A stretch of DNA of 30,143 nucleotides, from the NCBI GenBank assembly GCA_017409915.1, contig JAFQRU010000011.1, forward strand, positions 1-30,143, in the 5' to 3' direction. The DNA comes from Clostridia bacterium (lineage in GTDB: Bacteria; Bacillota; Clostridia; Monoglobales; Monoglobaceae). Below are positions 2,867 through 20,631 of the stretch, piece after piece; the first letter of the stretch is position 1, and each line of letters begins with the position of its first letter. The notes under the pieces were generated by a model. The model had not been told where the DNA came from, searched no databases, and worked only from the letters and a program-made list of their open reading frames with translations. A program made the position numbers and the translations under genes.

Positions 2867-3775
2867 TTAGTTCACCTTGTTTATATAGTTTAAAATAAGC
2901 TCTGCAGCAGATTTTATATCCGCTTTCGCTATTCCCTCATAAGCCTTTCCTTTGTCTCGAACGCCGATGCAGACGCCACCTGTCAAAGCTCCTTTTCCGC
3001 AAATCAAGGGAAGGTCAAGGAAGAGATTATCCTCGGTCGCTCCCACTTGCACCTTTTCTCCACCGGCCTTTATAAGCGCTTTTCTCACTTTCTCTGTGGG
3101 GACTGCGCCTTTTTCTTTTATAATAACAACTGCCCCCTCTGTGCACTTAACCTCATCTTTTTCAGGAATGGTGTTTATAGAGATAACAGTGTCCGCTTCA
3201 TATCCGCCAAGTAGAGCCTTTAAGCCTCTTCCTGCAAATTTTTTCTGAGTGGTAAATAAAAAGGCTGTGTCATCTGCATTTTTCATAACTTCAAGAGCAG
3301 TTATAATGGGGGCATAAACGGAAATTCCGTTTCCAAAAATAAACTTTTCATTTTCGGTTATATCCGCGCAAAGAGTTGCAAATTCCCCCATTGGAACCTT
3401 TTCTTTTGTTCCCTCTTTGTCTGTTTCGCCGATGTCAATGTTTAAGTCGCTGTCCTCAATATTTTCGGTTTTATCGCATCTTACAACGCCAACTACTCCG
3501 TTTAGAAATTTAACCTTTTTCCCAACGAGAGAGGAAACCTCTTTTGAAGAAGGAACACTAACCTTTATCATTCCGCTATCCGTCTCGCCGATTTTCATTA
3601 AGGCTACAGAATCAACGCCACATTCAACGGCTATCTTCCCGTCTCCTTTTTCGCATATAAGATTGCCGAAAACATCGGTATTGCACTTATATCCCTGACT
3701 CTCGCCGAAAGCTTTTATATAGGAAATCATATTTTCTTCTCGTCCGCTTGGGGACAGAATTTCAAATATCTCCAT
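2867..3775 (-). CDS. Degenerate M42 (TET) aminopeptidase-like protein lacking metal ligands
   Basis: M42-like N-terminus (SPSGREE...DVFGNLI) and IDIG motif, third in a tandem array. The HxD, D, EE and H ligand positions appear replaced (ECGVD, TQKK). Confidence 0.75.
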   Translation of the reverse strand: MEIFEILSPSGREENMISYIKAFGESQGYKCNTDVFGNLICEKGDGKIAVECGVDSVALMKIGETDSGMIKVSVPSSKEVSSLVGKKVKFLNGVVGVVRCDKTENIEDSDLNIDIGETDKEGTKEKVPMGEFATLCADITENEKFIFGNGISVYAPIITALEVMKNADDTAFLFTTQKKFAGRGLKALLGGYEADTVISINTIPEKDEVKCTEGAVVIIKEKGAVPTEKVRKALIKAGGEKVQVGATEDNLFLDLPLICGKGALTGGVCIGVRDKGKAYEGIAKADIKSAAELILNYINKVN

Positions 3776-18466: not shown

Positions 18467-18495
18467 TTGACAAAATACACTTTTTTTGATATATT
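18467..18495 (+). promoter_or_regulatory. SigA-type promoter for trpB-mgtC
   Basis: TTGACA-17 nt-TATATT. Confidence 0.7.
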
Positions 18496-18500
18496 ATAAT

Positions 18501-18547
18501 AAGAACAGATTAGATGAGATTAGATTAGAATATTTAGACGAGATGAG
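18501..18547 (+). promoter_or_regulatory. TRAP-type NAG triplet repeat array (candidate RNA-binding-protein site)
   Basis: AAG aa CAG at TAG at GAG at TAG at TAG aatatt TAG ac GAG at GAG, in the trpB leader. Confidence 0.8.
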
Positions 18548-18570
18548 ACATTTTTATTTTGATGCTCTTT

Positions 18571-18601
18571 TCTTCTGATTTTCTGTTCAGAAGATTTTTT
18601 T
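18571..18601 (+). terminator. Attenuator terminator in the trpB leader
   Basis: TCTTCTGA-8 nt-TCAGAAGA followed by T7, 3 nt before the trpB SD. Confidence 0.8.
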
Positions 18602-18618
18602 ATTGGAGGATGAAAATT

Positions 18619-19860
18619 ATGAATAAGTATAAGGATTTTGAAAATTATCTTAAAGAAAACCCTACTCCTGACGGCTATTTCGGCAAATTCGGCGGGTCAT
18701 ATCTCCCACCTGAGCTTGAAGTTGCTTTTAAAGAGGCAGACGACGCTTACGAGGCAATTTGCCACTCTGCTCAGTTTATTAACGAGCTTCGCCGTATCCG
18801 TAAGGAATTTCAGGGCCGTCCTACTCCCGTTTACCACTGCGAAAGACTTTCCAAGCTCTTTGGCAACTGCCAGATTTATTTAAAGAGAGAGGACTTAAAC
18901 CACACAGGCGCGCATAAATTAAACCACTGTATGGGGCAGGGACTTCTTGCTAAATATATGGGCAAGAAAAAGCTTATTGCTGAAACAGGTGCAGGTCAGC
19001 ACGGTGTTGCTCTTGCAACCGCTGCCGCTTATTTCGGTATGGAATGTGATATTTATATGGGTGAGGTTGATATTGAAAAGCAACACCCTAATGTTATAAG
19101 AATGAAAATGCTCGGGGCAAGGGTTATTCCCGTAACTCACGGTCTTAAAACCTTAAAGGAAGCTGTTGACGCCGCATTTGATGCATATCTTAAAGAATAT
19201 GACAATGCGATTTACTGCATAGGCTCTGCTCTCGGCCCTCATCCTTTCCCAAAAATCGTAAGAGACTTCCAGTCTATTATCGGCATTGAGGCAAGGGAAC
19301 AATTCCTGGAAATGACAGGTATTATGCCTGACGCTGTTTGCGCTTGTGTTGGCGGTGGTTCAAACTCAATCGGTATGTTTGTTCCATTCGTTTCCGACCC
19401 TGTTGAAATTTACGGAATTGAGCCTCTTGGCAGAGGGGAAAAAATCGGTGACCACGCCGCAACGATGAAGTTTGGTAAGGCGGGCAGAATTCACGGCTTT
19501 GACACCTATGTTTTAAGCGACGAAAAGGGCGAGCCACTTCCTGTTTATTCAATCGCCAGCGGTCTTGACTATCCAGGTGTAGGCCCTGAACACGCTTATC
19601 TTCGTGATTTGGGCAGAGTTAACTATGAAACAGTTTCTGACGAAGAAGCAATGGAAGCTTTCTTCCTTCTTTCAAGATATGAGGGAATTATTCCTGCAAT
19701 TGAAAGTGCCCACGCTGTTGCATATGCTATCCGCTATGCAAAGGAGCATAAGTCAGGTTCAATCCTTGCTTGTCTTTCAGGCAGAGGGGATAAAGACATT
19801 GACTATGTTTACGAAAACTATGGTTGTGGCGAACAGTTTAAGCTTGATTATAAGATTTAA
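18619..19860 (+). CDS. trpB: Tryptophan synthase beta subunit, stand-alone
   Basis: [57 protein letters not shown] and LSGRGDKD motifs. The start MNKY follows GGAGG. Confidence 0.95.
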
Positions 19861-19878: not shown

Positions 19879-20589
19879 ATGTTAGACTTTTTAGAGTCTT
19901 GGGGTATTTTACTTAAAGCGGAGCTTTTGCTTCGAATTTTGCTTTCAGTTATATGTGGGTATTTAATCGGTAACGAGAGAACCCATCAGGGCAAGCAGGC
20001 AGGCGTTAAAACACACTCAATCGTTGCACTTGCTTCTTGTCTTATGATGCTTATTTCCCAATACGGTTTCGAAGATTTTTACAGCATGGTTAACTATCCC
20101 GAAGTGGGGATGAGACTTGACCCGTCAAGAGTTGCGGCTCAAATCATTTCCGGTATTGGTTTTTTGGGCGCCGGAATGATATATGTTCATAAAAACAACA
20201 TTACCGGTCTTACCACTGCGGCAGGCATCTGGGCAACAGCCGGAATTGGTATGGCAATTGGTGGCGGAATGTATTTTATAAGCATTGCAACCACCATCAT
20301 TATCGTTCTCGCTCAGCTTTTTATGCATAATAGTTCAAAAGTTCCTCATCTTCCAAAAGAAGAAAAAATCACTTTTGTTGTTGAAGACACCCAGGAAGCT
20401 ATCGACCTTATTTTAGAATCTTTATCAGAATATGAAGTCGAGGTTCTTAAAATAAGCTATTCAAAGCTTGAAGATGGACTTTTAAGCGTAACAACCAAGG
20501 TTTCATATGACGGTACAGACAAAGATAAGCTGATGCGACTTATTGCGGAAATACATAAAGAGGAAAAAATTAAATCTGCACAATATTAA
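19879..20589 (+). CDS. MgtC/SapB family membrane protein
   Basis: ER...AGVKTH, DPSRVAAQIISGIGFLGAG and GLTTAAGIW motifs, with an ACT-like C-terminal domain. Confidence 0.92.
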   Translation: MLDFLESWGILLKAELLLRILLSVICGYLIGNERTHQGKQAGVKTHSIVALASCLMMLISQYGFEDFYSMVNYPEVGMRLDPSRVAAQIISGIGFLGAGMIYVHKNNITGLTTAAGIWATAGIGMAIGGGMYFISIATTIIIVLAQLFMHNSSKVPHLPKEEKITFVVEDTQEAIDLILESLSEYEVEVLKISYSKLEDGLLSVTTKVSYDGTDKDKLMRLIAEIHKEEKIKSAQY

Positions 20590-20593
20590 AATT

Positions 20594-20631
20594 AAAAGGT
20601 CAATACTCGATTTGAGTATTGACCTTTTTTT
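20594..20631. terminator. Bidirectional intrinsic terminator
   Basis: AAAAGGTCAATACTC-gattt-GAGTATTGACCTTTTTTT. Confidence 0.92.

Follow-up and report, generated by a model that had tools for sequence, protein, structure and literature searches.

The leader and transcription unit of the stand-alone trpB gene

The window, that is, the whole stretch of 30,143 nucleotides that was analysed, carries on its forward strand a gene for a stand-alone, TrpB1-type tryptophan synthase beta subunit of 413 aa (trpB, 18619..19860; TIGR00263, PALP domain). The predicted protein passes the TIGR00263 equivalog model with 529 bits, as compared to the cut-off of 392. Its start codon is the ATG at 18619, and not at 18620. 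The Shine-Dalgarno sequence of trpB, GGAGG (18605..18609, forward strand), is located 9 nt upstream of this ATG, and another ATG, at 18610, directly abuts it. In the same orientation, 18 nt 3' of trpB, lies a gene encoding a membrane protein of the MgtC/SapB family (19879..20589). There is no terminator between the two genes, which are co-transcribed, and a bidirectional operon terminator with a 16-bp stem follows mgtC (20594..20628).

The first-pass annotation proposed that trpB and mgtC are attenuated as one unit. With regard to trpB this proposal can be retained, whereas mgtC is not a conserved part of the unit. It occurs 3' of trpB in only two of five close genomes (that of the window, G000, and G005, with a distance of 18 nt in both), and was rejected on these grounds as a conserved member of the regulon. 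In the remaining three (G001, G007 and G008, with loci among L003-L006) the same bidirectional terminator directly follows trpB, which indicates that mgtC is a passenger. From the arrangement of these loci, it seems to have entered the transcription unit recently. In G036, trpB and a gene for an MgtC homologue (46% identity) are neighbours in divergent orientation, and trpB is followed there by AzlC.

Neither trpA nor trpC was found in the genome of the window, as represented by an assembly of 1.2 Mb that is 81% complete. Likewise, trpA was not found in G001, G005, G007, G008 or the 96%-complete G030, and trpE was not found in any of the five leader-bearing genomes of the window's genus. The assemblies of these five genomes are each 76-89% complete; as the misses are five and independent, the trp genes are likely to be absent. 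Thus, trpB, a gene of tryptophan supply, probably serves the salvage of indole, its product probably making tryptophan from environmental indole and serine.

The region upstream of trpB starts with a sigma-70-type promoter on the forward strand (18467..18495), in which TTGACA (18467-72) is separated by a 17-nt spacer from a TATATT hexamer (18490-95) that is extended by a preceding TG. This promoter matches the consensus at 11 of 12 positions, and the start of transcription is likely to be at about 18502-18504. Closely behind it, six triplets follow each other in a 5-nt register, namely AAG (18501), CAG (18506), TAG (18511), GAG (18516), TAG (18521) and TAG (18526), and a second block, TAG (18535), GAG (18540) and GAG (18545), begins 6 nt further on. 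The spacers are AA, AT, AT, AT and AT in the first block, and AC and AT in the second. The nine NAG triplets and their register are thus present where the first-pass annotation had seen them, together with the terminator, its T7 tract and the antiterminator pairing. The count of nine holds for the DNA and may not hold for the transcript: AAG (18501-03), 6-8 nt past the -10 hexamer, falls on the presumed start of transcription and may therefore be incompletely transcribed. Consequently, the usable array consists of one CAG and seven (G/U)AG (KAG) triplets, separated by 2 nt except at a single gap of 6 nt, and we predict it as a TRAP-binding array (18506..18547, forward strand). An attenuator controlled by TRAP should carry at least 5-6 (G/U)AG triplets with 2-3-nt spacers in an mRNA leader, and seven accompanied by CAG are found here. 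That the canonical triplets are only seven, and that a 6-nt gap breaks their register, points against the TRAP reading.

Two other kinds of attenuation devices were considered for this leader. Control by a leader peptide was rejected: the G000 leader contains no TGG codon except one within the Shine-Dalgarno context, and the very short frames that start with ATG (4 and 11 codons) are neither conserved nor preceded by a Shine-Dalgarno sequence. The T-box covariance model (RF00230; Stem I, specifier loop and T-box sequence) gave no match in the window, while the same model detected two T-boxes elsewhere in the genome. A search of the whole window with Rfam models returned only RNase P, with no T-box or riboswitch at the leader.

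Predicted terminator and antiterminator structures

Between the array and the Shine-Dalgarno sequence, behind a U-rich stretch, lies an intrinsic terminator (18571..18601, forward strand) in which an 8-bp stem (18571-78/18587-94) closes a loop of 8 nt and is followed by a run of seven U (U7, 18595-18601). Only three of the eight base pairs of the stem are G-C. The isolated hairpin has a predicted stability of -10.4 kcal/mol (z -3.7), which was reached by 0 of 200 shuffled sequences.

When the leader (18501-18604) was folded alone, the minimum free energy (MFE) structure, of -23 kcal/mol, was not this hairpin but a long antiterminator. Its base is formed by GAACAGAUUAGA (18503..18514, forward strand), which overlaps the first triplets, paired with UCUGA-uuu-UCUGUUC (18574..18588, forward strand) within the terminator. 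This is the pairing proposed in the first-pass annotation, and it is retained in 15 leaders. The 3' strand takes in five of the eight nucleotides of the terminator 5' arm, the entire loop and two nucleotides of the 3' arm, and the predicted fold is lengthened further where the triplets pair with the U-rich segment. When the triplet region was made unavailable, as would be the case with TRAP bound, the best predicted fold became the terminator hairpin. The same two-state folding was predicted for the leaders of G008, G001 and G005 and for the diverged leader of G030. Thus, in the predicted structures, a terminator is accompanied by an antiterminator that shares sequence with it as well as with the triplets, as expected of a TRAP attenuator.

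With the triplets blocked, the predicted fold also contains an additional, weak, 7-bp A/U-rich helix, formed by about 18558-18564 with about 18602-18608. As it reaches the Shine-Dalgarno region, it could, in transcripts that have passed the terminator, provide a secondary, translational layer of control like that known for trpE of B. subtilis. The helix also lends some support to an explanation in which TRAP binds the array and acts mainly on translation or mRNA stability rather than on termination, and TRAP of B. subtilis is known to control trpE, trpG and trpP translationally. However, the helix is weak, and 58 nt separate the end of the array from the Shine-Dalgarno sequence, with a canonical hairpin and U7 between them that are conserved in 100% of 15 leaders. 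Moreover, array and terminator are both overlapped by the antiterminator. We therefore consider a mainly translational or stability effect improbable, and control of termination by TRAP remains the preferred reading.

According to that reading, the leader would work as follows. Transcription would begin at about 18502. At low tryptophan levels TRAP would be inactive, and the nascent leader would form the long antiterminator based on the pairing of 18503-14 with 18574-88. This structure would sequester most of the terminator 5' arm and its loop, allowing RNA polymerase to enter trpB. When tryptophan is plentiful, tryptophan-loaded TRAP would wrap the CAG and (G/U)AG triplets (18506-18547) around itself and thus remove the 5' half of the antiterminator, so that the 8-bp/U7 terminator could form and transcription would stop at about 18601. 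In this way TRAP would switch off the salvage of indole whenever the supply of tryptophan is sufficient. The binding of TRAP, the dependence on tryptophan and termination in vivo are predicted here from the sequence and from modelled folds. Two RNA-library runs yielded only contigs of relatives that are 90-96% identical, with no information on 5' or 3' ends.

Conservation of the array and its co-occurrence with mtrB

The first-pass annotation named a genome-wide scan for such repeats as a check on its proposal, and the trpB leader came out as the top array and as the only intergenic run of at least four KAG triplets. In a dynamic-programming scan of the whole genome it ranked first, with seven KAG triplets and a score of 6.5. 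Two weaker chains, each scoring 5.0, are irregularly spaced and were not taken as TRAP sites. Five runs of at least four KAG triplets with 2-3-nt spacers occur in the assembly, and the four outside the trpB leader (on contigs C6, C22, C70 and C112) were rejected as well, all of them being located inside long open frames. A pattern of three KAG triplets followed by a gap of 2-13 nt and another three occurs once in the 1.2-Mb assembly. It was absent from all of 40 first-order Markov genomes as large as the assembly, and a reversed-pattern control over 61 genomes gave only scattered single matches. trpB thus appears to be the only TRAP target in this genome, as judged from the 81%-complete assembly; owing to this degree of completeness, further TRAP targets or trp genes could be among the unassembled parts.

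Orthologous trpB genes (85-100% amino-acid identity) preceded by a leader of the same design were found in 16 genomes of one family, 5 from the window's genus and 11 from a second genus. The shared order of elements is a TTGACA/TG-TATATT promoter (its layout is kept upstream of 16/16 orthologous leaders), GAACAGA, two KAG blocks, a U-rich segment, and a terminator with a loop complementary to GAACAGA. The 16 leaders contain 5-8 KAG triplets each, and 67 of their 90 spacers are exactly 2 nt long (AT in 53 cases, AC in 10, AA in 3 and CA in 1). Gaps of 7 and 12 nt preserve the 5-nt register. In the comparison of the leaders, the second and third triplet bases (A and G) are conserved, the first base alternates between G and U, and the spacers and the positions of the gaps drift. 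At the level of sequence, this combination of conserved triplets and drifting spacers is the signature of a TRAP site, and not of a helix or a coding region.

The two alternative structures are conserved too. In the alignment of 15 leaders (A1), the terminator helix is paired in 100% of cells, with one compensatory change of a UA to a CG pair in four sequences and two one-sided changes. The antiterminator is paired in 94.9% of cells, as compared to 26-60% for slid controls. It displays no compensatory change, as its 5' strand is nearly invariant in the 15 leaders, and this counts among the points against the proposed attenuator, the support for the antiterminator consisting of conservation and thermodynamics.

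These observations also bear on whether the repeat might be a chance or slippage-derived tract of low complexity beside a constitutive leaky terminator, with no regulatory role. The composition of the leader, which is A/T-rich and rich in GAT and TAG, would suit such an origin, as would the small number of G-C pairs (three) in the terminator stem. However, none of the 40 random genomes contained such an array, and the repeat is conserved over two genera in a way that keeps G/U-A-G under substitution while spacers and gaps change. As it also co-occurs tightly with mtrB, an accidental origin seems to us extremely unlikely, and we return to the array as a site for TRAP.

A gene for TRAP is present in the genome. 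A search with the PF02081 profile, proposed in the first-pass annotation, gave a single strong match, of 120 bits (G000:C88:994-1194), on contig C88 and thus outside the window. The mtrB open reading frame (G000:C88:976-1197; PF02081, NF009724) encodes a protein of 73 aa, which passes the NCBIfam equivalog NF009724 with 123.2 bits (cut-off 117). Residues 8-72 of this protein align to TRAP proteins of known structure, among them that in the complex with RNA (1c9s). The principal RNA contacts of TRAP are made by Glu36, Lys37, Lys56 and Arg58, and Asp39 also touches RNA; the side-chain contacts to tryptophan are made by Thr30, Thr49, Thr52 and Ser53, and the main-chain contacts by Thr25, Gly27, Asp29 and Gln47 (PMC1474065). 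All 13 of these residues are kept at identical numbering (T25, G27, D29, T30, E36, K37, D39, Q47, T49, T52, S53, K56 and R58). The leader is thus matched by a cognate mtrB with intact RNA- and tryptophan-binding residues. The first-pass annotation had left the choice between TRAP and an analogous ring-shaped protein; the first of these is present in its ordinary form, so that an analogous protein need not be postulated. The presence of TRAP as such is not news, since more than 509 species-level matches show it to be widespread in Clostridia, including Monoglobus, Ructibacterium, Petroclostridium, Carboxydothermus and Ruminiclostridium.

The neighbours of mtrB on C88 (L001, 210-1755) are a gene for a 224-aa membrane protein without a family match and a pgsA-like phosphatidyltransferase gene, and an A/T-rich promoter-like region of its own lies upstream of mtrB. 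There is no folE/mtrA neighbour. A search of the genome for anti-TRAP (PF15777), also suggested in the first-pass annotation, gave nothing above the cut-off; the best match, of 22.9 bits within a 323-aa frame, is probably a zinc-ribbon or DnaJ-like segment.

Leader and mtrB were found together in 15 genomes of the two genera, and neither of them in 26. One genome, 79% complete, has only the leader, and one (G009) has only mtrB, so that the two elements occur together in 15 of the 17 genomes that have either. The trpB of G009 is a different one, with 53% identity. Within the second genus, mtrB was detected in 10 of 33 genomes, and each of these 10 has the leader; the 79%-complete genome is the only leader-bearing member of that genus in which mtrB was not detected. 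Across 61 relatives, the six-KAG pattern was present in 20 of 32 genomes with mtrB and in 2 of 29 without it, the latter two being 79% and 84% complete. As the genomes counted are kin and not independent, these numbers overstate the significance of the association, and we give them as a description, with no statistical test. The conservation of the repeats in trpB leaders of relatives, on which the first-pass annotation had made its proposal depend, is observed: 16 leaders share the design and track mtrB almost perfectly.

HutP is another protein that recognises NAG triplets, and the array might in principle be read by a HutP-like or unknown protein, with mtrB serving other targets. Sites of HutP have 4-nt spacers and two blocks overlapping the terminator. 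The spacers here are 2 nt long, and together with G or U as the first base of the triplets they fit TRAP. In addition, no HutP gene (PF09021) was found in the genome, no other candidate target of TRAP occurs in the assembly, and mtrB and the leader are rarely found apart, as described above. Recognition by a protein other than TRAP is therefore very improbable, and TRAP remains the most plausible ligand of the array.

The lone trpB genes of the window's genus are of two kinds, one that is 97-100% identical to that of the window and has the TRAP leader, in genomes with mtrB, and one that is about 69% identical, in genomes without mtrB. Orthologues with 86-92% identity occur also in another family of the order. 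This distribution suggests that the pair of trpB and mtrB may have been transferred or repeatedly lost.

TRAP-type arrays and T-box leaders in relatives, and comparison with known systems

According to the first-pass annotation, most Clostridia use T-boxes, and the relatives of this genome agree with that statement. Full-length T-box leaders precede the orthologous or paralogous lone trpB of eight relatives, G002, G006, G013, G020, G034, G043, G047 and G056 (L008 in G047, 2873-3089, minus strand; L010 in G056, 1151-1370; L017-L021 and L023). Their matches, of 65-89 bits with E values of 1e-12 to 1e-18, are below the Rfam gathering score of 93, and cover model positions 1-219. In the alignment of the G056 T-box, UGG followed by A stands at the specifier position. 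The lone trpB of G047 and G056 is 87-89% identical to that of the window, and the identity is roughly 70% in the other six; G002 and G006 were the two genomes checked for the leader of the approximately 69%-identical trpB of the window's genus, and both have a T-box there. G034 has a T-box on its lone trpB and yet carries mtrB, with its TRAP array preceding a TrpB2 gene. The lone trpB of G036 and G023 is preceded by a plain promoter only.

TRAP-type arrays occur in the order also before other genes. They directly follow the promoters of trpE-headed trp operons in G014, G015, G016, G026, G027, G033 and G048 (L119-L124), of TrpB2-type genes in G034, G037, G059 and G060 (L113, L115, L125 and L133), and of genes for TrpX-type binding proteins of tryptophan ABC transporters in G018, G029, G049, G052, G053 and G058 (L114, L116-L118, L126 and L127). 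As the genes behind these arrays are trpE, TrpB2 and TrpX genes, the arrays mark a coherent regulon of tryptophan supply, which seems to be uncatalogued in the literature searched. Three further stretches, L145 (G017), L176 (G022) and L177 (G146), contain TRAP-like arrays of 4-7 KAG triplets each with a GAACAG-type motif just upstream, and no gene like the trpB of the window.

Taken together, the anatomy of the leader, its conservation, its co-occurrence with mtrB and the predicted alternative folds make it highly probable that the leader is a TRAP (MtrB)-dependent transcription attenuator of the stand-alone trpB. The interpretation offered in the first-pass annotation has thus gained support from the mtrB gene in the genome, the conserved array, its co-occurrence with mtrB and the folds. 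A broader proposal, plausible though just short of likely in our judgement, is that mtrB and the array-bearing lone trpB form a minimal, unlinked module of tryptophan homeostasis in reduced-genome gut Clostridia that would have lost de novo synthesis. TRAP would be kept there solely for indole salvage, the two genes would be gained and lost together, and the module would be interchangeable with a T-box in sister species. Its leader would act as a pure structure-switching attenuator with a large shared stretch and a perfect U-tract, in contrast to B. subtilis, where TRAP assists a weak terminator.

What is new here is the target of TRAP, the lineage and a somewhat different geometry of the antiterminator; the mechanism itself is the textbook one, and the understanding of how TRAP works is unchanged. 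A literature search retrieved no paper on TRAP sites before a lone trpB in Clostridia, although such sites may have been described before. Judged by all sequence criteria applied, TRAP attenuation after the Bacillus paradigm extends to uncultured gut Clostridia with small genomes, in which TRAP appears to control a single gene, a lone TrpB that probably converts community-derived indole to tryptophan. This provides a concrete and testable link between the sensing of free tryptophan and indole cross-feeding in the gut. The leader family, with its 16 members, and the order-wide regulon (trpE, TrpB2, TrpX and trpB1) are candidates for inclusion in regulatory databases.

In the trpEDCFBA leader of B. 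subtilis, the 5' part of the antiterminator overlaps the triplets, and a low-GC terminator forms when TRAP is bound (PMC3064811). The leader described here resembles it in the (G/U)AG triplets with 2-3-nt spacers, the overlapping antiterminator and the low-GC terminator downstream, and the regulator is orthologous, with identical contact residues. In contrast to the 11 triplets of B. subtilis, it has seven canonical ones and CAG; the transcript opens with the array, leaving no space for a 5' stem-loop, and its U-tract is an uninterrupted U7. The antiterminator encloses the entire array, and some 15 nt are common to it and the terminator, whereas the stretch in common comprises 3 residues in the B. 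subtilis leader and ranges from 0 to 5 for other trp operons regulated by TRAP (PMC3064811). Strong terminators were argued to need larger overlaps and more stable antiterminators (PMC3064811). The trpB leader fits this rule, and it may not need the additional role of TRAP in promoting termination. The target also differs, being a single lone trpB with the rest of the pathway not found, and, unlike in Bacillus, mtrB is not located beside folE/mtrA and no anti-TRAP was found.

The secondary targets of TRAP in B. subtilis are controlled at the level of translation, through arrays that overlap the Shine-Dalgarno sequence or the start codon. The arrays of trpG/pabA, trpP and ycbK, like those before trpE, TrpB2 and TrpX genes in the order studied here, share with the trpB leader the regulator and the triplet code, and in both B. 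subtilis and the relatives in this order one TRAP serves several genes of tryptophan supply. In contrast, trpB is apparently the only target in the genome of the window, and its control is predicted to proceed through a terminator/antiterminator switch.

Tryptophan-specific T-box leaders occupy the same place, between the promoter and a lone trpB, and likewise report the tryptophan supply through a terminator/antiterminator output. However, the RNA of a T-box senses uncharged tRNA-Trp by itself, whereas the leader of the window is a predicted protein-binding triplet array that would report free tryptophan. Sister species thus offer a natural comparison of two sensors placed before a lone trpB, TRAP for free tryptophan and the T-box for uncharged tRNA-Trp.
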